Source: Candidatus Micrarchaeia archaeon
GTDB lineage: Archaea > Micrarchaeota > Micrarchaeia > Anstonellales > JAHKLY01
Length of the DNA: 64,000 nucleotides
Assembly (NCBI GenBank): GCA_041653315.1
Contig: JBAZFO010000003.1
Location: 1,180 to 65,179 of the forward strand
Direction of reading: 5' to 3'
Position numbers and translations under genes: made by a program. Below are positions 2,838 to 62,782 of this stretch, in pieces. The notes beneath the pieces are model-generated. The model was not told where the DNA came from. It did no database searches and saw only the letters and a list, made by a program, of their open reading frames with translations. Position 1 is the stretch's first letter, and each line of letters opens with the position of its first letter.

Positions 2838-4651
2838 AAATTAAAAAAATCATCTAAATGTTTAATTATATAATCTGAAGGGAAGTATTGAAAATCCTTT
2901 GGGAAATATTGCTTATATTTTTCCCAATTAAATCTTTCATCTAATAATACGATAGCACATTTATCTGTTTCGCTTCTTATTCCCCTGCCTGCAGATTGTA
3001 AAACTTTATTTACTGCAGGAATCATATAAGTATATTCATTTCCTTTTCCTTGACCAAATTTAATATCAAAATAAGATACTAAATTCTTTTTTTCTAAAGA
3101 AGGAGGAGCTAATGGAATTCCTACTATAACAATTCCTTGAAGAGAATTATTTTCAAAATCAATACCTTCTGAAAAAGACCCTTTTTGTACACCTAACAAG
3201 GTTAAATTATTCTTTTTATGCATATTTTCTAAAACTATTTTTTTGTCCTCTTTTTTCCATTCTGAAGATTCTAAAATTAACTCTTTAGTTGAATCTATAT
3301 ATTTAGAAACATTCTCCATTAATTTATATGAAGGAAAAAAAACTGCGGTATTATGAGGTATACATTCAATTACTTCTGCAATTGCATTTCCCATTTTTTT
3401 AAATTCTTCTTCATTTCTCTTATGATATACAGTTGATAAAATATTAGAAGATAAAATAAGCCTATTCTCTTTTGGAAAAGGCGAGATATACTCTTTAAGT
3501 TCTCTATTTTCAATACCTAAAATGTCTGCATAAACTTCTGGGGGATACAAAGTTCCACTCATTAATATTGATGCATGAACAGAAGAAAAAATAGGTTGCG
3601 TAATATCTGAAGGATCAAGTGGAAATAAAGAGATTTCATCTTCTTTTATTATTCTTAATACATGTTCATTATCTTCTTTCCAAGAATAGAAAAAATTCAA
3701 CATGCTTGTTAAAGATAAAAACTCAAATTCATTTTCTTTTTTAGAACTTGCATATACTTCTGTTTGTTCAAGTCTACTTATAAAACTATTAAAATCAAAT
3801 TCAGAAACAAATGAGTTTTTAAATAACTCATTTATTTCATCCAACAACTCTTGTTTTTCTATAATTTTTTCTTGTCTACTCCCCAATAAATTAAAAATAT
3901 TCTTTAAAGAATCAAATGCCCTAGATAAAACAGGATCTGGAGCATATTCTTTTAATTCTTTTTTACAATTTGAGATTAAATTTTTAGATAAAGTAAATGT
4001 CATTAATTCTCTAGCTCTTTCTGGAAGATTATGCGCTTCATCAACAATTAAAATTATATCTTCCAAACCAATATTCATTTTAGACAAAACAATATTTTTT
4101 ATCATTGAATCAAAAATATAATTATAATCACAAACTAATACATCTGCATCTGCAATTAATTTTGATTCTGCTGAATGTGGACATGCAGAAAATTGTTTAC
4201 AAATTTGTTTTGCTTCTTCTACATGATAAATATCTTCCTTTAATGCCATTAAAGCAAAACCTTTTACATATGCATAAGGACATTTTTTAGATTTTATTTG
4301 ATGATAACAAAAAGAATCAAAATCATTTCTTTTCATATCTTTTGATTCTTGCAATAAACACATCTGTTGTTTATTTATTATATCTGCAACAACTAATTCA
4401 ACATTGTGTTTTTCTTTTATTAATTTTAAAGTATTTATTGCTATGGTATGTTGAGAATGTCTTGAAGTTGTAAAAATAACTTTTTTATTAAATTCTTTTG
4501 CATATTCTAAAACTGCACTTAAAACAGCTGCTGTTTTTCCTATACCAGTTGGCGCATATGCCAATAAATTAGTTCCTTTATAACACGCTTCTTTACAGTC
4601 TTCATAAAATTGTTTTTGAACTGGTCTTATCTCATCAAAAGGAAAAAACAT
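2834..4651 (-). CDS. XPD/Rad3-family (DinG-like) 5'-3' DNA helicase with an Fe-S cluster
   Basis: Walker A AYAPTGIGKT, DEAH box VDEAHNL, four Cys in the FeS region (CYHQ..C..C..C) and C-terminal motif GRGIRSETDKCAIVLLDERF. Confidence 0.8.
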   Translation of the reverse strand: MFFPFDEIRPVQKQFYEDCKEACYKGTNLLAYAPTGIGKTAAVLSAVLEYAKEFNKKVIFTTSRHSQHTIAINTLKLIKEKHNVELVVADIINKQQMCLLQESKDMKRNDFDSFCYHQIKSKKCPYAYVKGFALMALKEDIYHVEEAKQICKQFSACPHSAESKLIADADVLVCDYNYIFDSMIKNIVLSKMNIGLEDIILIVDEAHNLPERARELMTFTLSKNLISNCKKELKEYAPDPVLSRAFDSLKNIFNLLGSRQEKIIEKQELLDEINELFKNSFVSEFDFNSFISRLEQTEVYASSKKENEFEFLSLTSMLNFFYSWKEDNEHVLRIIKEDEISLFPLDPSDITQPIFSSVHASILMSGTLYPPEVYADILGIENRELKEYISPFPKENRLILSSNILSTVYHKRNEEEFKKMGNAIAEVIECIPHNTAVFFPSYKLMENVSKYIDSTKELILESSEWKKEDKKIVLENMHKKNNLTLLGVQKGSFSEGIDFENNSLQGIVIVGIPLAPPSLEKKNLVSYFDIKFGQGKGNEYTYMIPAVNKVLQSAGRGIRSETDKCAIVLLDERFNWEKYKQYFPKDFQYFPSDYIIKHLDDFFNF

Positions 4652-10279: not shown

Positions 10280-13200
10280 TTAGGCTTCATCTAGCCAGTC
10301 GTCTTCATCGCGCATTAAATTCATACGCGCATTTTGTAATAAAAGCGCTTTTTCAGCGCTTGCTACAATTCTTCTTGTGCGCTCAATTGCATCTGGATTA
10401 ACAGACATTGATGTAAATCCATATTCAACTAAGCGCCTTGCAAAATCTGGATACACAGAAGGCGCTTGACCACATACTGAACATGTAATTCCTTTTTTAT
10501 TACAAGTTTTACCTATATATTTCAAGGATTTTAACACAGCACTGTTTCTTTCATCAAAATCATGCGCTAATTTAGCATTATCTCTGTCAACACCCAAAGT
10601 TAATTGAGTTAAATCATTTGTACCTACAGATACTCCATCTATTCCTACATCTATAAATTCATTTAATAAAATAACATTGGAAGGAACTTCTACCATCATC
10701 CAAAGTTTAAAATCTTTAGTTCTGTACAACCCTACTTCATGAAGTATTGTTTTAACTTGTTTAAGCTCTCCAACTCTCCTTACAAAAGGAATCATTAACC
10801 AAAGATTTTTAAGATTAAATTCATTACGAACTTTTTTTATTGCTTCTAATTCCATTTTGAAAACATTTGGATCTGAAATATATCTTGAAGCTCCTCTAAA
10901 ACCCATCATTGGATTTTCTTCTTCATGCTCATATTTTTCTCCGCCTTTTAATGATTTATATTCATTTGTTTTGAAATCAGTTGCTCTATAAACAACAGGC
11001 CTTGGATAAAAAGCAGAAGCAAATTTTCTTAATTCATTTGATAATTTATTTATAAATTCTTCTTTTCTATTTTCATCAACAAAAACTCTTGGGTGTTCTC
11101 CAATTTCAGCAATAATAAACTCTGCTCTTAATAATCCGATACCATCTACATCCATATCTGCTATTTCTTCAACTCTTGAAGAACTAGCTAAATTAACATA
11201 AATTTTAGTTCCAGTTATAGGAGAATATTTTTCTGTTTGAGAAATTTGTTTAGTTTCTTTATTTTTCATTTTAATTATTCCTTCATATACCACTCCCCTA
11301 ACTGCATCAACAGTTACATTCATCCCAGTAGATAATTTTTTAGTAGCATCGTTAGTACCAACAATACATGGTATGCCTAATTCTCTAGAAACTATGGCCG
11401 CATGTGAAGTTGAACCCCCATAATCAGTTACAATTGCACCTGCTTTTTTCATTGCTGGAACAAAATCTGGAGAAGTCATAGAGGTAACTAAAATTTCGCC
11501 TTTTTGTATTTTATCAATTTCATTTTTTGTAGGGATAATTCTTACTCTGCCAGAAACAACTCCTGGTGATGCACCTAATCCTTTTAATAAAACTTCTCCT
11601 TGTTCTTCATCAGAAGAATAATATGAAGGAGAATCTTCTTCATAAGATAAAGAATATCTTTCATTAATGTCTTTTTTTTCTGCTAATGAATCAAGTAAAT
11701 TATTAACTTCATCTTTTTCTTCTGTATTCTCTTGATCTAAAGTAGTAATAGGTCTAGATTGTACTATATACATTTTTCCATTTTCATAAGCCCATTCTAT
11801 ATCTTGAGGAACACCATAATGTTTTTCTATTTTTCTGCATATTTTTGCGAGTTCTACTATCTTATCATCAGATAATTTTTGTAGATTTTGAGAACTTAAT
11901 GAAATATCAATATGTTCATTTTTACCTTCAGATAAAATCAATTTCCAAGTCTGTGTAGAAATAAATTTATTTATTATTTGTAAATCATCTTTTTTAACTG
12001 AATATCTATCTGGAGTCAACGCACCAGACACTACAACTTCTCCTAATCCATATGCACCTTCAATTTCTATTCTATTTTTATCTTGGGTAATAGGATCAAC
12101 AGTAAAAGCTACACCTGCTGTTTCTGATTGAACCATTTTTTGGACTACAGCTGAAAGTCCGACTTTTAAATGATCAAATCCATTTTCAGTTCTATAAAAA
12201 ATAGCCCTGGATTCAAATAAAGAAGCCCAACATTCTTTAACAGATTGAACTACGTTTTCAGGTCCTTGAATATTAAGAAATGTTGACTGCTGCCCAGCAA
12301 ATGAAAATGTGTTATGGGTAATTATTCCCCCAGTTCCAGCAACAAAATTTTCAATTCCTGGAACAGTAAAATCATAAACCCACCCTTCATAATCTAATGG
12401 CTTTACTTCTTTTATTTTTTCCCAATTCACATCACCATCAAAAATAGATGAAAGATCTTCTGAATTATACTCTTTCATTAATTCTTTGAATCTTTTTTGT
12501 GTATATTCTCCATTTAATACTCCTTTATTCCAAGGAGTTGATTCTCTTTTAAATTTCCCAAATTCATCATAATAAACATATGCTTCTTCCTTTTCTTTAA
12601 TTACATCTTTATCATAAAAAGACTTTTTACAATTTGGACAATAATATCTTGTTTTTGTTTTATATTTGCTTGATTTATTTATTTTTTCTTTACAAATAGG
12701 ACATTTATTTATTTCAATGATGTCTTTTGATAATTTTGCATCTACTTTGTTTTTTATAATATCTGATAATTTTTTTGAAATTTTTATATTCGCTATATAT
12801 CTTGGAGAATTATTTTTTATTTTTATTAATTTATTTAATCTTTCTTGCTTCTTTGGATGTTCAAATCCTATCTCTTTTTTAAATAAATCAACATCTCCCC
12901 CCCAAATACTAAGCACCCTATATTTTTTCTTTTTATTAAAAGTAATACCAAAACCAAAAAGTTCTAATAATTTTGCTAAACCACTTATAAGTAAGTATGA
13001 AGAAGAGGTACAACTTATTGTATCTTTACTTACATATCCATCTCCATCAAAATAACCTTTTAAAAATTCAGATATAAATTGCTTTTCTAAACTAAAAATA
13101 AAATCTGGTATCCGTTTTATTTCACAGGATTTGCCTTTACCTTTCATATCTAAAGGTTTACCAGTTAATTCATGCAATAATTTAACGAGTGTTTTACAAT

Positions 13201-14251
13201 ATATCCTTAACGAATACTTATTTATTTTTTGATTATTATATAAACCAAGCGAATCAACAAATTTTATTACTCTATTCATGATTTCTTTTGTTGATGAAGT
13301 TATGATAACATTATTATCTTCATATGTTGAACCTTCAGCAACATAAACACCTAAAAAATACATAAAATCCTTTGTTAATGGAATTTTTGAAGGTAAAGAA
13401 TTTTGGATATTCCAATTATTAGAATTATTTTTAATCATAAGGTATCCATTTTCTTCAACAACATTTTTTCCTTTTATATAATCTGTTACCTCTAAATATT
13501 CCATTTTTTTATTTACAAATGGAAGTGTACCAACAGTAGGAACCATTTCTCCTCCTTTTAAATTATCAATTGTTTCTGTTTTCCATTCTAAAGTATCTTC
13601 ATCTAAAACTATTAAAGAATGATTTTTAGATACAGTAATCTCTTTTCCTGAAGCAGTTTTTATTTTATATACTCTTTCATTTGCGGGGTGTCTATATATT
13701 GAACTAGCGCTAGTCCATATTAATTTATTGTTTTTCATAGAAGGAACTTCTAAATTCACATTTTGTCCATCCCCAATTAATTTATATAATTCCCCCATTG
13801 TACAAAATTTGGTATTATTATTTATCTTTACTAAAACATGATCTTCTTCTGATATACTTGGCAAATCTTCTGCTGTGGCTGAAGATCTTACTGCAACATA
13901 GGTTTGATCACCATATTTTTGACATAATTTATTATACGCATCCATTATTTCATTTTTTAAATAATCTGGAATTTTACCTGCTAAAATTGCATTTTTAATA
14001 AATAAAGAAGCTTCATTTAAATTTTTAATATTATGAACATCTAAATCACTGGAATATTCTTTTATTAAAGAAGTAATATTATTTAATCTAATAAAATCAT
14101 AATAAGCTCCACTTGAAACACAAAAACCATCTGGAATTGGAAAATCTGAATTAATCATTTCACCTAGATTAGCCCCTTTTCCCCCAACTTCTGCTAAATT
14201 ATTTTTACTCAATTCTTTAAACCAATAGATATTTTTCATTATAAACACCAA
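10280..14251 (-). CDS. ppsA: Phosphoenolpyruvate synthase (PEP/pyruvate-binding, PEP-utilising and PEP-synthase domains), interrupted by an intein
   Basis: N-terminus GGKGANLGEM. Extein junction VAVRSSATAEDLP / TFSFAGQQSTFLN matches the conserved AEDLP..SFAGQQ block. The conserved PEP-utilising domain and C-terminal Cys block are present. Called start is TTG; the in-frame ATG at Met5 is an alternative. Confidence 0.9.
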   Translation of the reverse strand: MVFIMKNIYWFKELSKNNLAEVGGKGANLGEMINSDFPIPDGFCVSSGAYYDFIRLNNITSLIKEYSSDLDVHNIKNLNEASLFIKNAILAGKIPDYLKNEIMDAYNKLCQKYGDQTYVAVRSSATAEDLPSISEEDHVLVKINNNTKFCTMGELYKLIGDGQNVNLEVPSMKNNKLIWTSASSIYRHPANERVYKIKTASGKEITVSKNHSLIVLDEDTLEWKTETIDNLKGGEMVPTVGTLPFVNKKMEYLEVTDYIKGKNVVEENGYLMIKNNSNNWNIQNSLPSKIPLTKDFMYFLGVYVAEGSTYEDNNVIITSSTKEIMNRVIKFVDSLGLYNNQKINKYSLRIYCKTLVKLLHELTGKPLDMKGKGKSCEIKRIPDFIFSLEKQFISEFLKGYFDGDGYVSKDTISCTSSSYLLISGLAKLLELFGFGITFNKKKKYRVLSIWGGDVDLFKKEIGFEHPKKQERLNKLIKIKNNSPRYIANIKISKKLSDIIKNKVDAKLSKDIIEINKCPICKEKINKSSKYKTKTRYYCPNCKKSFYDKDVIKEKEEAYVYYDEFGKFKRESTPWNKGVLNGEYTQKRFKELMKEYNSEDLSSIFDGDVNWEKIKEVKPLDYEGWVYDFTVPGIENFVAGTGGIITHNTFSFAGQQSTFLNIQGPENVVQSVKECWASLFESRAIFYRTENGFDHLKVGLSAVVQKMVQSETAGVAFTVDPITQDKNRIEIEGAYGLGEVVVSGALTPDRYSVKKDDLQIINKFISTQTWKLILSEGKNEHIDISLSSQNLQKLSDDKIVELAKICRKIEKHYGVPQDIEWAYENGKMYIVQSRPITTLDQENTEEKDEVNNLLDSLAEKKDINERYSLSYEEDSPSYYSSDEEQGEVLLKGLGASPGVVSGRVRIIPTKNEIDKIQKGEILVTSMTSPDFVPAMKKAGAIVTDYGGSTSHAAIVSRELGIPCIVGTNDATKKLSTGMNVTVDAVRGVVYEGIIKMKNKETKQISQTEKYSPITGTKIYVNLASSSRVEEIADMDVDGIGLLRAEFIIAEIGEHPRVFVDENRKEEFINKLSNELRKFASAFYPRPVVYRATDFKTNEYKSLKGGEKYEHEEENPMMGFRGASRYISDPNVFKMELEAIKKVRNEFNLKNLWLMIPFVRRVGELKQVKTILHEVGLYRTKDFKLWMMVEVPSNVILLNEFIDVGIDGVSVGTNDLTQLTLGVDRDNAKLAHDFDERNSAVLKSLKYIGKTCNKKGITCSVCGQAPSVYPDFARRLVEYGFTSMSVNPDAIERTRRIVASAEKALLLQNARMNLMRDEDDWLDEA
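12311..13858 (-). mobile_element. Intein (516 aa) with a LAGLIDADG homing-endonuclease domain inside ppsA
   Basis: Begins SISEEDHVLV (Ser1) straight after DLP and ends ...GGIITHN followed by Thr+1. LAGLIDADG blocks LGVYVAEGS and LKGYFDGDGYVS. Removing it restores an 807-aa PpsA. Confidence 0.8.
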
Positions 14252-14364: not shown

Positions 14365-14502
14365 GGGCTCGTAACTCAGCTTGGTAGAGTGGCTGGCTTT
14401 TAACCAGTAAGCCAAGGGTTCAATAACCTTTTTCTTTCTTGCAAGAAAGTAAAAGCTTAACCAAAAAGAAAGAAACTGGAAGAATAAATCCCTTCGGGCC
14501 CG
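14365..14502 (+). tRNA. tRNA-Lys (anticodon UUU) with a roughly 61-nt intron inside the T-loop (between TTCAA and AT, position 58/59)
   Basis: Acceptor GGGCTCG/CGGGCCC, D arm ACTC...GAGT, anticodon stem-loop GCTGG CTTTTAA CCAGT. T stem AAGGG...CCCTT is split by an intron that carries the hairpin TTTCTTTCTTGCAAGAAAG. Poly-T follows. Confidence 0.7.
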
Positions 14503-15330: not shown

Positions 15331-15996
15331 ATGAATAAAAAAATAATAAAAATATTCCCAGGAGTATTTGAAATTGAAAGAAGAATTGCTACAAAGAATT
15401 TAATTAAAGGTAATCCTGTTTATGGAGAAATTATAAAAAAAATAGATAATGATGAATATAGGTTTTGGGACCCTCATAGAAGTAAATTATGTGCTGCAAT
15501 TAAAAGAGGAATAAAAGATATTTATATTAAAGAAGGAGATAAAGTATTATATTTAGGGGCAGCAACTGGAACAACATCTTCTCATGTTGCAGATATTATA
15601 GGCCCTAAAGGAGTAGCTTACTGTGTTGAATTTGCACCTATTTCATTTAGGAAACTTATTCATGTATGCGAAAATAGAACAAATATGATCCCAATAATGG
15701 GAGATGCAAGGAAACCAGATATGTATACTGAAGTTGGAGAAGTAGATATTGTTTATGAGGATGTAGCACAACCAGATTTAGCAGAAATACTATTAACAAA
15801 TTGCAGATATTTCTTAAAAAAAGGAGGATATGCAATGCTTGCTGTTAAATCACAAAGTATTGATGTTACTAAAGATCCAAAACAAACATATGAAGAAACT
15901 ATAAAAAAATTAGAAAAAGAACTAAAAATTGTTGAAACAATTATCTTAGATCCATATGAAAAAGACCACCTGTTTATTGTAGCTCAAAAAATTTAA
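15331..15996 (+). CDS. flpA: Fibrillarin-like rRNA/tRNA 2'-O-methyltransferase
   Basis: FWDPHRSKLCAAI, AdoMet motif YLGAATGTTSSHVADI; 221 aa. Confidence 0.9.
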   Translation: MNKKIIKIFPGVFEIERRIATKNLIKGNPVYGEIIKKIDNDEYRFWDPHRSKLCAAIKRGIKDIYIKEGDKVLYLGAATGTTSSHVADIIGPKGVAYCVEFAPISFRKLIHVCENRTNMIPIMGDARKPDMYTEVGEVDIVYEDVAQPDLAEILLTNCRYFLKKGGYAMLAVKSQSIDVTKDPKQTYEETIKKLEKELKIVETIILDPYEKDHLFIVAQKI

Positions 15997-16745: not shown

Positions 16746-16974
16746 ATTAAAATTTAATATAAAATTATCTCAGAATAAATTTATAAAACATAGCTTTATA
16801 AACGAAAAACACGTATAATATTATAGGCAATGAAGTCACCGTCCCAGTATGAGATTAACGATGATTACCGGAGTAGCTACTGAGCCCATTATTATATTTT
16901 TTAATATTTTATACTCCATTACTTTTTTTACCAAAGTTATACTTTTATATAACTTTCGTAATATAATATCTTCT

Positions 16975-17619
16975 ATGGAATTACCAATTGAGAAAAAATT
17001 AAAAAAACAAGTACATTTAGAAACTGCTATTTTACAAGATATAATAATGGAAAAACTCGTTTATTCCTTAGACTTAGTTCTTCATGGAGGAACTTCTATA
17101 TGGCGAGTATATAAAGGAAATCGGTTTTCTGAAGATTTAGATTTTTATATGGAAAAATGGGAACCTGATAAAATAAAAGAAACTTTAAAAGAATTAGAAA
17201 TTTTTGAAATGAAACTCAAAAAATTTAAAAAAACAAAAAATACTGTTTTTTCAGTAATTGAAAAAAACAATGTAATTGTAAAAGTAGAAGCTTCTAAAAA
17301 ACACTGGAAATTTAAAGAAATGTTAGGAGAATATGAAAAAACAAATGGAAGTTATCTTCCTATTAGTACATTATCAGCAGAAGATTTATTCAAAGAAAAA
17401 ACAAAAACATATTTAAATAGAAGATTGATAAGAGATATTTATGATATATATTTCTTATTCCATCAGTGCGATTTTAAAAAAATAGAAAAAACAGGTAAAG
17501 AATTTATAAAAAATATCCCTTTCCCAAAAGATGAAGATGTTTTAAAATCATTAATTTTAACAGGAAAAGTTCCAACATTTAATGAAATAAAACTAAAATT
17601 ATTAAATTGGTTTAAATAG
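16975..17619 (+). CDS. AbiEii-type nucleotidyltransferase (DUF1814-like toxin of a type IV TA/Abi module)
   Basis: GGTSIWRVYKGNRFSEDLDFY matches the AbiEii GGTAL...RFSEDIDF signature. The track ORF begins at 16849, but the first 42 codons are hydrophobic low-complexity, so ATG at 16975 (MELPIEKK) is preferred. Confidence 0.6.
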   Translation: MELPIEKKLKKQVHLETAILQDIIMEKLVYSLDLVLHGGTSIWRVYKGNRFSEDLDFYMEKWEPDKIKETLKELEIFEMKLKKFKKTKNTVFSVIEKNNVIVKVEASKKHWKFKEMLGEYEKTNGSYLPISTLSAEDLFKEKTKTYLNRRLIRDIYDIYFLFHQCDFKKIEKTGKEFIKNIPFPKDEDVLKSLILTGKVPTFNEIKLKLLNWFK

Positions 17620-17627
17620 GTGAAATT

Positions 17628-18137
17628 ATGAAATATTCGTTAGAAATATTCAAATCAAAAAAATATCCTGTTTTTACGTTTAAAGATATTAAACAATTAA
17701 AAATACCTAAAAACTATGCAAAACAACTTATGTATAATAAAATAAAAAGAGGAGAAGTAAAAAGAATTAAAAAAGGGTATTATACTTTTCACGAAGATCC
17801 AATGATTGTAGTATTTGCATATGAACCAGCATATCTAGGATTAGAATCAGCATTAAGTATACATAAGGTTTGGGATCAAAAAACTGTTCCTGTGATTATA
17901 ACACAAAAAAACGTTAGACAGGGAATAAGAAAATTTAATAATACAAATTATGTTGTTAAAAGAATAGCACCCTCTTTATTTACAGATTACACAACCATTA
18001 ATTATTATGGGTTTTGGCTTCCTGTTTCAACTTTAGAAAAAACTTATGAAGATATCAAATATTTTAATGAAAAAATAGATCCAAAAACTATGAGGAAATT
18101 AAAAAAACTAATTAAAAAAAATAAACTTAAAAAATAA
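17628..18137 (+). CDS. AbiEi-like putative antitoxin/transcriptional regulator (wHTH N-terminus)
   Basis: N-terminal YPVFTFKDIKQL...KRGEVKRIKKGYYTF resembles the AbiEi N-terminal domain. Start is 9 nt after the AbiEii stop. Confidence 0.4.
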   Translation: MKYSLEIFKSKKYPVFTFKDIKQLKIPKNYAKQLMYNKIKRGEVKRIKKGYYTFHEDPMIVVFAYEPAYLGLESALSIHKVWDQKTVPVIITQKNVRQGIRKFNNTNYVVKRIAPSLFTDYTTINYYGFWLPVSTLEKTYEDIKYFNEKIDPKTMRKLKKLIKKNKLKK

Positions 18138-25836: not shown

Positions 25837-26433
25837 ATGAAAAATATAATTAAAATTTATGAAGCACTGATTAATCGAAAATCAAAAATATGTCATAGAA
25901 AAGAAATTATTGATATAATCAAAGAATATAATAAAAAATTTGGGAAAGTAAACATTAAAAACACGCTAAAATATCTTTCAAGACATAAATATACTATACG
26001 AGTATTCAAAAAGTTCTATTATATAAATTCATTAGATGAAAAGGAGCGTAAATTTTGTTTATTTGAAGATAGAGAATTATTATTTTCTGTATTAAACAAA
26101 CTCGATATTAAATGGTATGTTGGACTTAACTCTGCTTTATACATTTCTGGAGAAATTTGGCAAATACCAAACATATTGACAATAGTAAACAACAAAATAA
26201 GTGGAAAAAAATCAATACTTGGAATTACTGTTAGATTCTTCAAAATAAAAGAATCTTTAATTTTCGGCCTTAAGACAAAAAAAACTAAAAATAAAATTAA
26301 ATTTTATTACTCTAATCCCTCAAAAACTTATTTAGATTTAGTATATTTCAAACAATCTAAAAAAATTATTTTAAAGGAAAAAACTAAAAATTATCTTAAG
26401 AGGTATCCAAAATGGCTCAAAAAATTAATATAA
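25837..26433 (+). CDS. AbiEi-like antitoxin/regulator
   Basis: N-terminal wHTH-like LKYLSRHKYTIRVFKKFYYI. Overlaps the downstream AbiEii gene by 22 nt. Confidence 0.5.
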   Translation: MKNIIKIYEALINRKSKICHRKEIIDIIKEYNKKFGKVNIKNTLKYLSRHKYTIRVFKKFYYINSLDEKERKFCLFEDRELLFSVLNKLDIKWYVGLNSALYISGEIWQIPNILTIVNNKISGKKSILGITVRFFKIKESLIFGLKTKKTKNKIKFYYSNPSKTYLDLVYFKQSKKIILKEKTKNYLKRYPKWLKKLI

Positions 26434-27329
26434 ATAAATACATTGCAGAGGTCAAAAGGAATCTTGGAATAAAAGTTTCAGATGAAATAATTGAAAAAGA
26501 CCTGCTTCTGACTATTATTTTAGGGGAGTTTGAAAAGCTCGGGCTTGGAAAAGAACTTATTTTTAAAGGAGGAACTCTTTTATCGAGAAATTATTTGAAT
26601 TACCATCGATTTTCTGAAGATTTGGATTTTGTTCATCATAAATCCAATAAATTAAGAAAAATGAAAAGAAGAACAAGAGAAAAGGAAATTAAAAAATTCA
26701 TAGATTCATTTGTTCCAAAAATATATACATTAGCTGAAAACCTTGAACTTATATTTAGTAAAAATAGAAGTGATACAAAATTCTGTACTATTCTTCATGG
26801 AAGGACAGTATATATTTTCAGAATGTATTATTCTAACTCTAGATTTATAAAAATTGAGATTAATTTTATAGAAAAAATTATTCACAAACCAGTAAAAATT
26901 TCAATAAAAACAATAACTGATCTTTTTGATTCAAAAGAACTTGTGTTCAGTCTTGGGCTTGATATTCAAAACTTTAATATAAAAAGCTATTCTATAAATG
27001 AAATACTCATTGAAAAATACAGGGCAATTTTAACAAGAAAAGACTTAAAAGAAAGGGATTTGTTTGATTTATTTTTTATTCCAAATTCTCTTTCAATAAA
27101 AAAATCTGAAATAATACAAAAAATAAGTGCTTCATCATTAATAAAACGGGATCTTAATAAACTAATAGAAAAAAAACTTACTTTACTTGAAAAAAACAAT
27201 TTTTTTGAGAGTGATGAAAATATGGAATACCTAGCAATCGCTAATTATGATAAAAAGAAATTTGAAAAATTTAAGGAAAAAATAAAACCAAAACTAATAG
27301 AAATTTGCAAGACATTTTTAAGTAAATAG
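26412..27329 (+). CDS. AbiEii-type nucleotidyltransferase toxin (DUF1814-like)
   Basis: KGGTLLSRNYLNYHRFSEDLDFVH signature. Confidence 0.7.
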   Translation: MAQKININKYIAEVKRNLGIKVSDEIIEKDLLLTIILGEFEKLGLGKELIFKGGTLLSRNYLNYHRFSEDLDFVHHKSNKLRKMKRRTREKEIKKFIDSFVPKIYTLAENLELIFSKNRSDTKFCTILHGRTVYIFRMYYSNSRFIKIEINFIEKIIHKPVKISIKTITDLFDSKELVFSLGLDIQNFNIKSYSINEILIEKYRAILTRKDLKERDLFDLFFIPNSLSIKKSEIIQKISASSLIKRDLNKLIEKKLTLLEKNNFFESDENMEYLAIANYDKKKFEKFKEKIKPKLIEICKTFLSK

Positions 27330-27346
27330 CCTGCCTCAGACTCTGT
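27321..27346. repeat. 26-bp direct repeat, copy 2
   Basis: Identical to 25653..25678. Confidence 0.8.
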
Positions 27347-27476
27347 CAGCCTTCTCATCGCATTTCTGCTAAACGGTTGTTCATGTCATCATCGGCTTTG
27401 TCTATAATATACGAACATTTCTGCGCATAATATCATAGACAATTATATTTATGCTTTTTCCCTTTATAAATATTAC

Positions 27477-28567: not shown

Positions 28568-28810
28568 TGCTCCGGCCGGGATTTTCTCCCAGTTGGCTTT
28601 TTTGCGCCAGCCAAGGTTTTGAATTCTCGAGCCTACAGGGTTCTTTTCTTTCCCTGGGGTTTCTTTTCTTACAAGAAAAGAAAGGCCACCCGGGTCGCCA
28701 GGGATCTCCAAATTTTCTTTTTCTTTCCCAAGGGTTTCTTTTTCTTTTCAAAAAAGAAAAAGAAAGGCTTTGAGAGCCTGGTATCCTTGACCGGACTAGA
28801 CGACCGGAGC
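28568..28810 (-). tRNA. tRNA-Glu (anticodon CUC) interrupted by three predicted introns: in the anticodon loop, at the T-stem/T-loop junction (about 53/54) and within the T-loop (58/59)
   Basis: Exons read GCTCCGGTCGTCTAGTCCGGTCAAGGATACCAGGCTCTCA / CCCTGGCGACCCGGG / TTCAA / ATCCCGGCCGGAGCA. Joined, they give a canonical archaeal tRNA-Glu (GACCCGGGTTCAAATCCCGGCCGGAGCA). Poly-T follows. Confidence 0.6.
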
Positions 28811-28814
28811 TTTA

Positions 28815-28928
28815 CGAATGTAATGAGTAAAGCGAGGTCTTTTTGCAACAGCAAAACAGACCGGAGCAAACGAACGTTAGTGAGTTTGTGAGGTCTTTTT
28901 GACAAAGTCAAAACAGACCGGAGCAAAA
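28815..28928. repeat. Two tandem units of about 57 bp upstream of tRNA-Glu. Each ends in a copy of the tRNA 5' end (GCTCCGGTCTG) embedded in a GGTC...GACC hairpin
   Basis: CGAATGTAATGAGTAAAGCGAGGTCTTTTTGCAACAGCAAAACAGACCGGAGCAAA versus CGAACGTTAGTGAGTTTGTGAGGTCTTTTTGACAAAGTCAAAACAGACCGGAGCAAAA. Confidence 0.7.
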
Positions 28929-29077
28929 AATACAATTTTATTTAATTATATAAAGGATAATTTAAAAAAATACCTAAAAACAAAAAAAGCAAAAGTTAGA
29001 ATATTTTTATAAATGTTGTGGTTGTTTATTAAAGTATAAAATCAAATCATGAACTAATAAAAAGAGGTGAAAAACAC

Positions 29078-31865: not shown

Positions 31866-31977
31866 TGGGCCTGGTGAGATTGTCAGACTTTCTGGCAATA
31901 TTTTGCGCCAGTAAAATCAATTGAACTCACGATCTTTGTCGTGTGAGGACAACATCATACCACTAGACCACAGGCCC
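31866..31977 (-). tRNA. tRNA-Val (anticodon CAC) with a roughly 40-nt intron in the T-loop (58/59)
   Basis: GGGCCTG TG GTCTAGTGGTATGAT G TTGTC CTCACAC GACAA AGATC GTGAG TTCAA[intron]AT CTCAC CAGGCCC A. Intron contains the CTGGCGCAAAATATTGCCAG hairpin. Confidence 0.7.
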
Positions 31978-32081
31978 ATAGACTGTGGGCTTTTGAACAA
32001 AGTTCAAAACAAACCACAGGCTCTTAAGAATTTTTTAATCTTCTCAATATTATAAATATATAAAAACATTCGCTTATTAAA

Positions 32082-36716: not shown

Positions 36717-38033
36717 TTACTTTTTTGAAATTGCTCTCTGTAATTTTTCTGCATTAAAGTCTTTTTTAACAAAAATATAAGAAATCAAAAATCCAAGTAA
36801 TACTATCAATAACCCAAAGAAAATGACTTCAATTTCTATTTGTGCTATAAGTAATAAACAAGATAATGCACCAAAAAAAGCTAAAACAGGAAACTTACCA
36901 ATATTTAAAGGGATTTTAAAATTTCTTTTTATATTAGGCATTTTATATCTCAAAACAATTGCAGAAACATTAACAATAAAAAACGGAATTAAAATTGTGA
37001 TATTAGTCATATTTGCTACAAGATTTATATTTCCTAATAATACAAATAATGAAGATAAAATAAATAATAAAATTATGGCAACCCATGGAGTTTGTCTTTT
37101 TTTATGTAATCTTCCTAGTATTTCAGGTAAAACTTTTCCTCTTGCCATTCCATAAATCATTCTTGATGCTGCTAATAAAATTAATAAAATAGTATTCGCA
37201 GTTGCAAATAATGCTATAATCCCCATTATAAAAAATGCATCATTTCCTAAAAATGAATGAGATACTACATCTGCTAAAGGAGCAGTAGATTCTCCTAAAA
37301 CCTCCCAATTCATTACACTTATTGCAGAAATAGCAACAAGAATATATAATATAGTTGAAATAACAATTGCAAATAAAGTTGCCTTTGGAACTATTTTTGT
37401 AGGATCTTTAACTTCTTCTGCCATATTTACTATTTCATCAAAACCAATATAAGCAAAAAATATTAATGCAGCAGCAGAAAATACTCCAGCCATACCAAAT
37501 TCTGCTGGAAATTCAAAATAATCAACTGAACCTAAGTAGGGAATTGCTAAAAATACAACTGCAATTAAACCTAAAATCTCTACTATAGAACATATAATAG
37601 CAAACCATGCAGATTCTTTTATCCCATAAAATAAAATAATTGATAGTACTGCTAAACTCCCAACTGCAGTTAAAATTATGGGTGTATTAAAAAATGCATT
37701 AAAATAACCAGCAAAACCTAAAGAAACTGCTGCTACTGATATAATTGGAGAAATAAGTAATAACCACCCGATAACAAATGCTAATCTTTTATTAAATGCT
37801 TTTTCAGTAAAAACAAATTCTGCACCTGCTTTAGGAAATAAAGATGCTAATTCTGCATAACTTAACCCGCTTAATGCTGCTACTCCTGCGGCAATTAAAA
37901 AAGATAACCAAACTGTATTTCCTGCTACTCCTGCTGCTTCTCCAATTAAAACATATATCCCTGCACCCAAAATAATTCCTATTCCAGTCAATGTTAATTC
38001 CCAAAATCCTAAAGCTCTCTTTAATTCAACCAT
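36717..38033 (-). CDS. APC-superfamily amino acid permease (paralog 1)
   Basis: 12-TM profile, conserved LGFWELTLTGIGIILGAGIYVLIG start. About 75% identical to the neighbouring gene. Confidence 0.8.
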   Translation of the reverse strand: MVELKRALGFWELTLTGIGIILGAGIYVLIGEAAGVAGNTVWLSFLIAAGVAALSGLSYAELASLFPKAGAEFVFTEKAFNKRLAFVIGWLLLISPIISVAAVSLGFAGYFNAFFNTPIILTAVGSLAVLSIILFYGIKESAWFAIICSIVEILGLIAVVFLAIPYLGSVDYFEFPAEFGMAGVFSAAALIFFAYIGFDEIVNMAEEVKDPTKIVPKATLFAIVISTILYILVAISAISVMNWEVLGESTAPLADVVSHSFLGNDAFFIMGIIALFATANTILLILLAASRMIYGMARGKVLPEILGRLHKKRQTPWVAIILLFILSSLFVLLGNINLVANMTNITILIPFFIVNVSAIVLRYKMPNIKRNFKIPLNIGKFPVLAFFGALSCLLLIAQIEIEVIFFGLLIVLLGFLISYIFVKKDFNAEKLQRAISKK

Positions 38034-40185: not shown

Positions 40186-40293
40186 TGGGCCCAGTGAGAT
40201 TTGAACTCACGGCCTCTCGATTATCAGTCGAGCGCTCCAACCATTTTAGGCTTATTTAAATCTTACTAAATAAACTGACTAAGCTATGGGCCC
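40186..40293 (-). tRNA. tRNA-Ile (anticodon GAU) with a roughly 31-nt intron in the D-loop
   Basis: GGGCCCA TA GCTT AGTCAG[TTTATTTAGTAAGATTTAAATAAGCCTAAAA]TGGTTGGAGC G CTCGA CTGATAA TCGAG AG GCC GTGAG TTCAAAT CTCAC TGGGCCC A. T-loop is intact. Confidence 0.65.
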
Positions 40294-45443: not shown

Positions 45444-46448
45444 TCAAAATCGTATGAACATTGCATCTCCAAATGAATAAAATCTATAATGCTGTTCTAT
45501 AGCTTCATTATAAAGCTCATGCCATTTATCTCCTATTAAACTTGCTATTAATAAAAGTAAACTAGTGCGTGGAAGATGGAAATTAGTTATTAAACCATCA
45601 AATTTTAAATTAAATTTATAACCTGGATAAATAAATAAATTAGTTTCTTTAGCGCAAGCCTTAACTTTTCCATTTTTTAATGTAGCACTTTCTAAAGTTC
45701 TTAAAGAAGTTGTACCAACAACATACAAAGCGCCTTTTCTTTTATTAATTACTTCTGCTGCCTTTTTATCAATTTCAAACCATTCAAAATGCATTTTATG
45801 TTTTTTATAATCTTCTTCTCTAATCTCAGCAAAGGTCCCTAATCCTACATGAAGACAAATTTTAACTATCTCAATCCCTTTAGCTTCTAAACGTTCAATT
45901 AATTTACTACTAAAATGCAATCCTGCAGTGGGTGCTGCAACAGAGCCTTCTTTTAATGCAAAAACAGTTTGATATTTTTTTCTATCATAATTTTCATTAT
46001 GTATATATCCAGGTAAAGTAAAATCTCCTTTTTGTTTAATTATTTTTTCAATAGGTTGATTAAATTTTAATAAAAAATGAAAATCAATTTGAGATGCAAT
46101 CTCAGCAATTACTCCATCTTGAAATAATAATTTATTCCCAATTTGTGGATTTTTACATTTAACAAATGCTTCATATTCTTTATTATTTTTCTTTTTTATA
46201 AGGGTTATTGAAGCCTGCCCCCCAGTTTCTTTTTGTCCAATCAATTTTGTATTTACAACTTTGGTTTCATTAACAACTAAAATGTCTCCTTTTTTTAGAT
46301 AATCAACAAGTTCAAAAAAATGTCTGTGTTCTATTGAATCTTCTTTTTTATTATAAATTAACAAACGCGATTCATGTCTTTTATCTAATGGTTTTTGCGC
46401 AATTAATTCTGTAGGTAAATTATAATAATAATTATTTATTGATTCCAT
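45444..46448 (-). CDS. queA: S-adenosylmethionine:tRNA ribosyltransferase-isomerase (bacterial-type queuosine pathway)
   Basis: YNLPTELIAQKP...SRLL, VAAPTAGLHF, LHVGLGTF, VGTTSLRTLESA, IYPGY, ITNFHLPRTSLLLLIASL and YRFYSFGDAMFI all match the QueA conserved blocks. Confidence 0.85.
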   Translation of the reverse strand: MESINNYYYNLPTELIAQKPLDKRHESRLLIYNKKEDSIEHRHFFELVDYLKKGDILVVNETKVVNTKLIGQKETGGQASITLIKKKNNKEYEAFVKCKNPQIGNKLLFQDGVIAEIASQIDFHFLLKFNQPIEKIIKQKGDFTLPGYIHNENYDRKKYQTVFALKEGSVAAPTAGLHFSSKLIERLEAKGIEIVKICLHVGLGTFAEIREEDYKKHKMHFEWFEIDKKAAEVINKRKGALYVVGTTSLRTLESATLKNGKVKACAKETNLFIYPGYKFNLKFDGLITNFHLPRTSLLLLIASLIGDKWHELYNEAIEQHYRFYSFGDAMFIRF

Positions 46449-60524: not shown

Positions 60525-60977
60525 ATGTACAATATTGTTTTAAATAAAATAAAGGAAAATTTTGATTTTGAGGAACTTTTCCTTTATACCTCTTTTTCTA
60601 TTTTTAAAACAGATAAAATAAGAATCGCATGTTCCCAATGTAAAAAAAATAAAATTATATACTTAGAAACATACGAGCCTTCAATGGAAATAATTCAAAA
60701 ACTTAAAGAAAAAAAAAGTATTTTACTTATAAATTTATTAGATATAATAAATAAAGAAGGCCCAAATAGAAGTATTTTAATAAATAGAATAAAATTATTA
60801 TTAAAATTATGTATAAAATATAAAATAGAATTTATATTTTCTTTTTTAGCTTTAAATGAAATGGAAATGAGAACTTTTAAAGAAGGTATTGCGCTTGGGG
60901 TTTTATTAGGTTTAAAACCAATTCAAGCTAAAAATGCATTTATTAATATTAAAAAATTAACTGAAAAAGAGGAATAA
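60525..60977 (+). CDS. Possible reduced RNase P protein subunit (Rpp30-like position), hypothetical
   Basis: Assigned only by its position between rpl15e and the Pop5 gene (the conserved archaeal L15e-Rpp30-Pop5 order). At 150 aa it is shorter than typical Rpp30; no motif confirmed. Confidence 0.3.
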   Translation: MYNIVLNKIKENFDFEELFLYTSFSIFKTDKIRIACSQCKKNKIIYLETYEPSMEIIQKLKEKKSILLINLLDIINKEGPNRSILINRIKLLLKLCIKYKIEFIFSFLALNEMEMRTFKEGIALGVLLGLKPIQAKNAFINIKKLTEKEE

Positions 60978-60981
60978 AAAA

Positions 60982-61308
60982 ATGGGAATAAAGCCTACTG
61001 CAAGAATGAAAAAGAGATATATTGCATTTCAAGTTATTGGAAAAGATGCAGATAAAATTAGTGATATTGAAATTAAAAATACATTTTATTCTATTCTTAA
61101 TCAGCTTTATGGAGAAATTGGTTTTTCAAATTTAGGTTTTAATTTAATTGAATATAAAGAAAAAAAAGGAATAGTTCGTTTTAGAAGACAAGAATTAGAA
61201 AAAGCAATATCTAGTTTTGCATTTATAAAAAATATAAACAACAAAGAAGCTCGTTTATCTCCTTTAAGTACTAGTGGAAGTTTAAAAAAATTAAGAGAAA
61301 AGTTATAA
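60982..61308 (+). CDS. RNase P protein component Pop5 (Rpp14 homologue)
   Basis: KRYIAFQVIG near the N-terminus and SGSLKKL near the C-terminus fit the Pop5 RYI.FE ... SGT pattern; 108 aa. Confidence 0.65.
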   Translation: MGIKPTARMKKRYIAFQVIGKDADKISDIEIKNTFYSILNQLYGEIGFSNLGFNLIEYKEKKGIVRFRRQELEKAISSFAFIKNINNKEARLSPLSTSGSLKKLREKL

Positions 61309-62325: not shown

Positions 62326-62459
62326 CTCTCTAATTAATATTAGTTTTGTGTTAAAATATATATTTAGTTGTATTTAAAAAGGTTTTTATATGGGGATTTA
62401 TAAAAAAACGCTGGAGCAAATAAAATTTGCTTGGTGCATTTTTTCTACAGAAAAAATAG

Positions 62460-62676
62460 CGCCGAGGGAGGGATTTATTCAATTTCTTTCTTTTTGGTTA
62501 AGCTTTTTCTTTCTTTTTAAAGAAAGAAAAAGGTTATTGAACCCCCAAGTCCGTGAAGACACACGATTTCTTATTTTTATTTTGTTTTCTTTTCTTTGCT
62601 TAAGCTTTCTTTTCTTTTCCAAAAGAAAAGAAAGGTTATTCCAGTCGTGCGCACTACCAGATTATGCGACCTCGGC
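62460..62676 (-). tRNA. tRNA-Ser (anticodon GGA, long variable arm) with two introns: canonical 37/38 in the anticodon loop and a second in the T-loop (58/59)
   Basis: Exons GCCGAGGTCGCATAATCTGGTAGTGCGCACGACTGGAA / ATCGTGTGTCTTCACGGACTTGGGGGTTCAA / ATCCCTCCCTCGGCG. Variable-arm hairpin GTCTTCACGGAC. Poly-T follows. Confidence 0.6.
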
Positions 62677-62782
62677 ATTACTATGACGAGGGTTGTAAGC
62701 TTTGCTTACTTTACCTCGGCATGAATATAATATATGACGGAGGATTTTCATGAAATGAAAACTGACCTCGGCATAATTATTA
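62667..62782. repeat. About 2.5 tandem units of about 50 bp upstream of tRNA-Ser. Each begins with a copy of the tRNA 5' end (ATGCCGAGGT) and forms an inverted repeat with ATGACG(A/G)AGG
   Basis: ACCTCGGCAT at about 62669, 62713 and 62765, paired with TATGACGAGGG and TATGACGGAGG. Confidence 0.65.

Follow-up and report, generated by a model that had tools for sequence, protein, structure and literature searches.

Tandem hairpin units carrying a copy of the tRNA 5' end precede tRNA genes in a Candidatus Micrarchaeia archaeon

Why should a tRNA gene be preceded by repeated copies of its own 5' end? The question is raised by a 64-kb stretch of DNA (contig JBAZFO010000003.1, positions 1,180 to 65,179; hereafter the window) that is part of a 70.5-kb contig, has a GC content of 26% and is placed in Candidatus Micrarchaeia (DPANN lineage) by AlaRS and other encoded proteins. 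An original prediction, made from the sequence alone, reported partial copies of the tRNA 5' end, each inside a hairpin, before the genes for tRNA-Glu, tRNA-Ser and tRNA-Val, and suggested that these could be attachment-site (att) scars, decayed tandem tRNA copies or promoter-proximal structures acting on the 5' leader. The three sets of repeats exist, all on the minus strand and at the positions listed below, and their presence upstream of these tRNA genes is far beyond chance. The tRNA identities are likewise correct, as ARAGORN returns Glu(ctc), Val(cac) and Ser(gga) from the spliced sequences. What had escaped that prediction is that each copy is matched by an antisense counterpart of nearly full length (the "anticopy"), that every copy ends in GGT, and that a related element is found 3' of tRNA-Ser. 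The genes and their repeat units are as follows.

28568..28810, minus strand: tRNA-Glu(CTC) gene with three introns (one in the anticodon loop, two in the T-loop) and 2 upstream units; found by eye, and by ARAGORN after splicing
28811..28867, minus strand: Glu unit 2 (proximal), hairpin H2 plus spacer S2 with ATTACATT; from sequence and fold
28868..28924, minus strand: Glu unit 1 (distal), hairpin H1 plus spacer S1, GCTCCGGTCT-G-TTTTGAC-TTT-GTCAAAA-AGACC followed by TCACAAACTCACTAACGTTCGTTT; fold -12.6 kcal/mol, z -2.6
31866..31977, minus strand: tRNA-Val(CAC) gene with one T-loop intron and 1 upstream unit; ARAGORN after splicing
31978..32023, minus strand: Val unit (46 nt), GAGCCTGTGGT-TTG-TTTTGAAC-TTT-GTTCAAAA-G-CCCACAG-TCTAT; fold -16.0 kcal/mol, z -4.4
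62460..62676, minus strand: tRNA-Ser(GGA) gene with two introns (anticodon loop, T-loop) and 2 upstream units; ARAGORN after splicing
62679..62722, minus strand: Ser unit 2 (type d, 44 nt), ATGCCGAGGT-AAA-GTAAGC-AAA-GCTTAC-AAC-CCTCGTCAT followed by AGTA; fold about -15 kcal/mol, z -5.5
62723..62774, minus strand: Ser unit 1 (type b, 52 nt), ATGCCGAGGT-CAG-TTTTCAT-TTC-ATGAAAA-T-CCTCCGTCAT followed by ATATTATATTC; from sequence and fold

A unit measures 44-59 nucleotides (nt) and consists of a copy of the tRNA 5' end, an AU-rich inner hairpin, the anticopy and a spacer. The copy spans tRNA nt 1 (nt -2 in the case of Ser) to nt 8-11 and ends in GGT without exception, which corresponds to nt 6-8 in Glu and Ser and to nt 9-11 in Val; the genes for tRNA-Lys and tRNA-Ile, which carry no units, have no GGT at that position. 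Upstream of tRNA-Glu, which begins with GCTCCGGTCGT at 28810, GCTCCGGTCTG is found at 28924 and 28867, i.e. with a period of 57 nt, each time inside a GGTCT...AGACC hairpin. Upstream of tRNA-Ser, whose own ATGCCGAGGT begins at 62678 (G1 being 62676), the same ATGCCGAGGT is found at 62774 and 62722, each time paired with CCTC(C)GTCAT, and upstream of tRNA-Val, which begins with GGGCCTGTGGT at 31977, GAGCCTGTGGT at 32023 pairs with CCCACAG. The inner hairpin is variable (6-8 bp, loop of 3-6 nt), and the anticopy pairs over almost the whole copy, apart from a small C-containing mismatch or internal loop (C2xU in Ser, C4xU in Val, C4C5 in Glu). The spacer has 4-25 nt (4-13 nt in Val and Ser); AUUACAUU is common in unit spacers, and the Ser spacers and the Glu types S2 and S3 contain ATTACATT. 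The spacer is also able to fold into a second hairpin, closed by the first base(s) of the next copy or of the tRNA; in Glu unit 2, for instance, the 3' arm of a possible 7-bp hairpin ends in G1 C2 of the tRNA. Taken whole, a unit forms one interrupted hairpin (z between -2.6 and -5.5 relative to dinucleotide shuffles), with neither a cloverleaf nor recognisable D, anticodon or T arms, and Rfam gave no match at the units, either at the gathering score or at E<=1.

When the whole window was scanned for direct repeats that are GC-rich, 9 nt or longer and no more than 250 nt apart, the Glu, Val and Ser loci emerged together with only two others, namely a coding repeat and the self-complementary acceptor ends of tRNA-Ile. 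The coding repeat consists of short GC-rich direct repeats (TGCTGCTACT, CTGCTACTCCTGC) in an amino-acid permease gene (37728-37935) and is unrelated to the tRNA units. Within the 64 kb the units occur only at tRNA termini.

A directly repeated tRNA segment is what integrative elements classically leave behind in archaea, and the units resemble archaeal att duplications in that part of a tRNA is directly repeated beside an intact gene. They differ in that the repeated part is the 5' 8-11 nt, arranged head-to-tail every 44-59 nt in up to at least 6 copies, with a conserved hairpin in each and without foreign DNA or an inserted element in between. A Pfam scan of the approximately 58 open reading frames (ORFs) of the window recovered no integrase, transposase, reverse-transcriptase or cas domain, and three scans of viral contigs (IMG/VR, plasmid collections not included) for a matching attP gave only chance matches. 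The att scars of the original prediction, left by an integrase that inserts at the tRNA 5' end, have on these grounds next to no probability. A CRISPR array was rejected as well, as the variable parts are 20-nt hairpins that are conserved between genomes and the window has no cas domains, and to our knowledge the units carry no defining motif of C/D-box or H/ACA RNAs, K-turns, CRISPR, integron attC sites or IS200/IS605 ends.

The syntenic comparison that had been suggested as a check was made on orthologous loci in relatives (window included: five genomes for Glu, four for Ser, three for Val and three for Lys), and units are indeed present at these loci, in numbers that range from 0 to at least 6. 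Upstream of tRNA-Glu there are 2 units in the window, 1 in L001, 1 and a decayed hairpin remnant in L027, 2 in L051 and at least 6 in L050, the latter count being a lower bound because a run of N (approximately 2990-3110) breaks the array, upstream of which lies a truncated unit remnant. Glu unit 2 of the window has an ortholog in L027 that differs by 2 substitutions. Upstream of tRNA-Ser the number rises from 1 in L039 and 2 in the window to 3 in L038 and 4 in L035, where the array contains a recent duplicate; type b units are found in L035, L038 and L039 as well as in the window. The Val unit is intact in the window, decayed in L050 (the outer stem is lost and the inner hairpin is kept, with a compensatory change from C:G to T:A) and lacking in L051, yet L051 has the same promoter as the window. 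The number of units changes fast, from 1 to at least 6 for Glu, from 1 to 4 for Ser and from 0 to 1 for Val. No units precede tRNA-Lys in any of the three genomes (window, L057 and L058), and two genes of the window serve as negative controls:

14365..14502, plus strand: tRNA-Lys(TTT) gene with one T-loop intron, 0 units; ARAGORN after splicing
40186..40293, minus strand: tRNA-Ile(GAT) gene with one D-loop intron, 0 units; ARAGORN after splicing

A scan of JGI metagenomes with the 5' exon of tRNA-Glu retrieved 21 loci, among which units were limited to AT-rich close relatives, and the more distant relatives with intron-less tRNAs had none. By this comparison the units exist only in a narrow clade of Micrarchaeia with intron-rich tRNA genes.

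The units vary in sequence far more than in pairing. Eight distinct Glu hairpins contain no non-canonical pairs and have changed on both sides at 7 of 12 pair positions, their outer stems being GGTCT/AGACC, GGTCC/GGACC, GGTGC/GCACC and TGTCC/GGACA. The four Ser inner hairpins (GTAAAAAC/GTTTTTAC, TTTTCAT/ATGAAAA, ACAAAAC/GTTTTGT and GTAAGC/GCTTAC) have unrelated sequences and perfect pairing. Compensatory substitutions preserve the stems of the units. One-sided changes in Ser lead to G.U pairs on the tRNA-sense strand; they are few, and are weak evidence in favour of a structure in the sense-strand RNA. Conservation can also be high at the level of the sequence, as unit H1+S1 is identical at 56 of 57 positions between the window and L050, whose dcd DNA is 82.6% identical to that of the window. 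Since an intron of the same tRNA-Glu gene is also identical at 62 of 66 positions, this points to constraint or to a recent exchange of the whole locus, and not of the units alone.

Parts of the units recur in other units and outside of them. Types of hairpin and spacer have been recombined between genomes (H1+S1, H1+S3, H3+S1', H3'+S2), the S3 spacers are similar to the sequence that precedes the first unit, and the Val core (TGTTTTGAACTTTGTTCAAAA) is, but for one extra base pair, almost the Glu H1 core (TGTTTTGACTTTGTCAAAA), within flanks that are specific to each tRNA. Ser type b units share 13-14 identical nt with the tail of the T-loop intron of tRNA-Ser plus the 3' exon (p<0.003), and the last L050 Glu unit shows a significant resemblance to the 3' part of the T-loop intron of its own gene. 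To that same Glu unit the 58 nt that follow tRNA-Ser in the window (62459..62402), and their counterpart in L039, are homologous:

62402..62459, minus strand: 3'-side element of tRNA-Ser, a T6/A6 hairpin followed by GCACC, AAGCAAATTTTATTT, GCTCCAGCG and T7; from alignment to the L050 Glu unit

This element is flanked by the 3' end of tRNA-Ser and a near-copy of that end. Its first T6 run, located directly after the tRNA, may act as a terminator. Cores and spacers are common to different tRNAs, an intron and a 3' flank. For most of the other units, resemblance to the tRNA past its first 10 nt is not significant, and a homology of the Glu and Val units to the D-arm or the anticodon arm was rejected, as the match of GTCAAAAAGACC with GTCAAGGATACC is suggestive by eye but not significant against shuffles. 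Decayed tandem tRNA copies, the second suggestion of the original prediction, can on this evidence be retained in part as an origin (Ser type b, one L050 Glu unit) and not as a description, given the preserved stems and the 56/57 identity. The Ser units are like acceptor-stem minihelices and internally deleted tRNA pseudogenes in that they keep both acceptor strands (with one C.U mismatch) in a single hairpin and hold 13-14 nt of the 3' end of the gene, whereas the Glu and Val anticopies are inverted versions of nt 1-10 and not the 3' acceptor strand, and a T-loop is lacking.

The sharing of modules could also reflect a miniature palindromic element that is mobilised in trans, similar to the miniature inverted-repeat transposable elements (MITEs), to repetitive extragenic palindromes (REPs) or to an intron. 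Such an element would target sites behind a GGT near the ends of tRNA genes and, through duplication of the target, restore the end that it had interrupted, so that the leader arrays, some of the introns and the Ser 3' element would make up one family. This reading, which we consider unlikely, is favoured by the near-identity of the Val and Glu H1 cores between tRNA-specific flanks, by the match between the Ser 3' element and the L050 Glu unit, each flanked by local tRNA-end repeats, by the resemblance of one Glu unit to an intron segment, by the GGT that ends all copies and is lacking at that position in the unit-free Lys and Ile genes, and by the original promoter spacing that is retained by the first copy (see below). 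On the other hand, the duplicated target measures 8, 10 or 11 nt, unlike the fixed stagger of a transposase, the anticopy is tRNA-specific and must for that reason have been made in situ and not carried along, no free-standing copy away from tRNA genes exists within the 64 kb, and no transposase or reverse transcriptase was found among the ORFs of the window. The units share with REPs, their mosaic arrangements (bacterial interspersed mosaic elements) and MITEs the character of short, imperfect, non-coding palindromes that vary in tandem number and conserve structure over sequence. They differ in being tied to the termini of a few tRNAs, with arms that derive from the tRNA's own sequence, and in having neither dispersed copies in the 64 kb nor a RAYT- or transposase-type gene in the window; of the hallmarks of a MITE or REP, the inverted-repeat structure was found, and dispersed copies and a duplication of fixed length were not (64 kb). 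A broader version, to which we assign a similarly low probability, holds that the units, the hairpin-rich introns and the Ser 3' element are one undescribed palindromic family that settles in those portions of a tRNA transcript that can be removed (leader, intron and trailer), inserting after GGT-type sites and rebuilding the tRNA end as a direct and an inverted copy. If true, the clade would show the disruption of archaeal tRNA genes and the gain of introns in action.

The position of the arrays relative to the promoter bears on whether they are transcribed. Upstream of the Glu array the following was found:

28947..28966, minus strand: TATA-like boxes, TTTAAATT at -42 and TTTATATA at -30 from the first unit; motif search

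TTTAAAT is present at a matching spacing (-43) in L001 and L051; it is lacking in L027, whose closest TATA-like box is found at -77. With that exception, all unit-bearing genes have TATA-like boxes at -30 to -54 from the first unit, unit-free genes have them at -13 to -40 from tRNA +1, and none was found within any array examined. This spacing implies that the first copy occupies the original tRNA start position, so that the arrays would lie in the 5' leader, between the promoter and the mature 5' end. The third suggestion of the original prediction, a promoter-proximal structure that acts on the 5' leader, is thereby supported as to location and not as to action.

That each unit is itself a small-RNA gene or a duplicated promoter module, i.e. 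that the arrays are tandem promoters, finds some support in the S3-type spacers, which resemble the promoter-proximal stretch and end in T5-T6 right before the next copy, and in the occurrence of TTTAAAAA in one L050 unit at approximately -33 to -26 from the tRNA start. It is nevertheless very unlikely, given the lack of TATA-like boxes inside the arrays examined, the GC-rich anticopy that usually occupies -30 to -23, the Val and Ser spacers (4-13 nt), which are much too short for a promoter, and the compensatory changes in the stems, which are not expected of one.

Which of the copies serves as the 5' end of the tRNA can be read from their degeneration. Several distal copies have substitutions that are incompatible with an intact acceptor stem (G2>A in Val, G6>T in L001 Glu, C3>A in L038 Ser), while the proximal copy is always perfect, and the proximal copy is on that account the functional 5' end. 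The same observation bears on the idea that the array is an intron, with the first copy as the true exon 1 and the remainder excised by the splicing endonuclease. In its favour, a direct repeat would formally allow such an excision, the first copy lies at a tRNA-like distance from the TATA-like box, the 3' acceptor strand is paired with the distal copy in equilibrium folds, and micrarchaeal endonucleases are reported to be broad in specificity (PMC3239211). Excision would, however, leave acceptor stems broken by the distal copies (Val A2, L001 Glu T6, L038 Ser A3) where the proximal copy is perfect, and neither a bulge-helix-bulge (BHB) nor a consistent half-motif is present at both excision sites in either pairing register. 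The predicted loops in the units are a 1-nt bulge (Glu), a one-sided 3-nt bulge (Ser type b) and internal loops of 4x3 and 4x2. We regard an intron as highly improbable. The units do resemble BHB introns of tRNA genes, including those of the genes studied here and the non-canonical, transposing introns of Thermoproteales, in being short, hairpin-rich, removable insertions with complementarity to the adjacent exon and a quick turnover between relatives, and one unit contains a T-loop-intron module. The difference is that they lie upstream of the mature 5' end, lack a BHB and would need a 5' cut, by RNase P, for their removal.

Genes for subunits of RNase P, the enzyme presumed to remove the leader, are found in the window:

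60525..61308, plus strand: RNase P subunit genes Rpp30 (weak match) and Pop5/Rpp14 (Pop5 at 56.6 bits); Pfam

The Pop5 and Rpp30 gene pair is also found in relatives, where it adjoins tRNA-Ser, and its presence means that a leader can be removed. No gene for the RNA of RNase P was found in the 64-kb window or in L001; in the more distant relatives L003, L004, L006, L007, L008 and L012 an archaeal RNase P RNA is located just upstream of alaS. A loss of RNase P in combination with leaderless tRNAs, as in Nanoarchaeum, was rejected in view of the Pop5 and Rpp30 genes and of the TATA spacing, which implies short leaders even for unit-free genes.

The explanation that we favour, tentatively and short of considering it established, is that the units make up a family of palindromic leader repeats that is confined to this lineage, arises by duplication and is removed by RNase P, with hairpins that sequester a spare acceptor strand. 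The units would have been built from the ends of the tRNA gene itself, partly duplicated and turned into palindromes, sometimes together with intron tails, would have spread among a few tRNA genes by recombination at the common GGT(C) junction, and would grow and shrink as arrays by slippage or unequal crossing-over. Transcribed together with the tRNA as its leader, each unit would fold on itself while emerging, and the hairpin would prevent the superfluous acceptor 5' strand from engaging the 3' acceptor strand of the tRNA, after which RNase P would cut at the genuine +1 and the array would be discarded. The hairpin would then be selected as damage control and not for a function of its own; in terms of this model, it is probably kept because folding on synthesis holds the spare 5' strand away. 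Ensemble folding with a mutated anticopy is consistent with such a role, as the probability of the correct acceptor stem falls in 3 of 4 constructs (from 0.48 to 0.08 for L001 Glu, from 0.09 to 0.03 for Ser and from 0.997 to 0.973 for Val), the mutation being without effect on the acceptor stem of the window Glu.

Several points weigh against this explanation. The start site, the co-transcription and the cleavage by RNase P are all inferred, and a comparison of sense and antisense fold energies does not separate an RNA structure from a DNA structure, because the stems are almost purely Watson-Crick. Equilibrium folding in the window Glu and Ser pairs the 3' acceptor strand preferentially with the distal copy, and the Glu units leave nt 1-5 (GCUCC) unpaired, so that the sequestration is partial only. 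Harmful copies should moreover erode, yet nt 1-8 are identical to the tRNA in most units, which calls for concerted evolution or selection. The conservation at the level of exons, the spacer motif common to Ser and Glu, and the presence of units at Glu and Ser versus their absence at Lys would fit a real function.

Such a function could be that of a leader with two registers, which gates or delays the cleavage by RNase P and the folding of the intron-laden pre-tRNAs. In one register each copy would be bound by its own anticopy, and the 5' strand of the tRNA would be free. In the other, each anticopy would bind either the copy that follows it or the 5' end of the tRNA, and the 3' acceptor strand would be taken up by the first copy. 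A different function could be to shield the precursor from 5'-3' decay by means of the 5' hairpins. In support of a functional leader, the sequence is conserved to the level of a tRNA exon and covariation is strict, an unpaired ATTACATT-like motif is common to the Ser spacers and Glu S2 and S3, the two registers are nearly isoenergetic in the predicted folds, and units are present at Glu in 5 of 5 genomes and at Ser in 4 of 4, versus 0 of 3 at Lys. There is also a synthetic precedent, in that engineered leaders that sequester the acceptor 5' strand reportedly control cleavage by RNase P (PMC8925977). In those riboswitch-tRNA fusions (PMC8925977) the leader is likewise complementary to the 5' acceptor strand and can compete with the acceptor stem; the present case differs in being natural, in having an antisense segment that pairs in cis with a decoy copy upstream of it and in having no evident ligand-binding part. 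Against a functional leader speak the unconstrained number of units (1 to at least 6), the fact that Val works with none, the decay of distal units in some genomes, and the L001 copy, which has drifted from the tRNA with a compensating anticopy, so that the hairpin has been kept and not the ability to pair with the tRNA. A functional leader is in our judgement unlikely, as is the idea that the arrays are a register-shifting checkpoint on pre-tRNA folding, and the damage-control explanation remains the one that we prefer.

In the literature that we searched we found no account of leader repeats in tandem that reproduce a tRNA 5' end, and a defining feature sets the units apart from each of their closest known counterparts (tRNA att duplications, BHB introns, REP and MITE palindromes, and engineered acceptor-sequestering leaders). 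How non-canonical introns, splits and permutations originated in archaeal tRNA genes is an open question, and the clade combines an unusually fast turnover of introns with insertions of another kind, which duplicate the 5' end of the tRNA and have modules in common with the introns. The close relatives, with anything from 0 to at least 6 units, form a natural series that may inform both on how such insertions arise and on how a pre-tRNA folds correctly despite upstream decoy acceptor strands. If the repeats are just tolerated junk that RNase P removes, they are a curiosity of reduced DPANN genomes. They also matter for annotation: genes of this kind go wholly undetected by standard tRNA finders, and an assembly can break at the repeats, an example being the run of N in the L050 array.

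The tRNA genes themselves were found by reading GC-rich islands; there are five in the window, each with 1-3 non-canonical introns, located in the D-loop, the anticodon loop or the T-loop. Because of these introns ARAGORN, with intron mode on or off, reported 0 tRNAs in the unspliced window and Rfam yielded just two partial tRNA matches, whereas ARAGORN called Lys(ttt) and Ile(gat) in addition to the three genes above once the introns had been spliced out in silico. The introns are rich in CTTTCTTTTC/GAAAAGAAAG hairpins, and many follow a common plan: XACC, a polypyrimidine/polypurine hairpin, XACC again and a second purine arm. In tRNA-Ile the D-loop intron holds a second D-arm-like stretch (AAGCCTAAAATGG; 40250-40293, minus strand), to which Rfam aligns instead of to the exon because of this resemblance, and the gene is accepted by ARAGORN only if the splice keeps AGCTTAGTCAG. 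The tRNA-Glu orthologs of close relatives differ in the number of introns (3, 3, 1, 2 and 2), tRNA-Ser has an extra D-loop intron in L038 and L039 and a T-loop intron of another type in L039, and L001 and L027 have identical downstream DNA but different introns and units. The tRNA-Val(CAC) gene is located between dcd and alaS in the window, L050, L051 and L052, and is missing from this intergenic locus in two other related genomes; the loci compared also include L001 (5500-6020) and L053-L056. No link between units and rare codons can be drawn from the five genes: the codons read by Glu-CTC (10% of its family) and Val-CAC (7%) are rare, and that read by Ser-GGA is not.

Some neighbouring genes deserve mention. 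The gene for the tRNA-splicing ligase RtcB (rtcB, 55497-58319, plus strand) carries an intein, and so does that for a phosphoenolpyruvate-utilising enzyme (similar to PPDK/PEP synthase; 10280-14251, minus strand), in which the intein has LAGLIDADG homing-endonuclease domains. An AbiEii toxin-like gene (16849-17619, plus strand) is followed by an AbiEi-like antitoxin gene (17628-18137, plus strand), and a second AbiEii toxin-like gene (26412-27329, plus strand), approximately 1.2 kb from tRNA-Glu, overlaps an upstream ORF without a Pfam match (25837-26433, plus strand). An intergenic GC-rich island at 27334-27396 (minus strand) gives a weak match to a C/D-box small RNA (sR14, 19.8 bits, E 0.56), and a fibrillarin gene is located at 15331-15996. 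Finally, the ORF at 45444-46448 (minus strand) strongly matches QueA (369 bits), of the bacterial-type biosynthesis of queuosine, which is unexpected in an archaeon.

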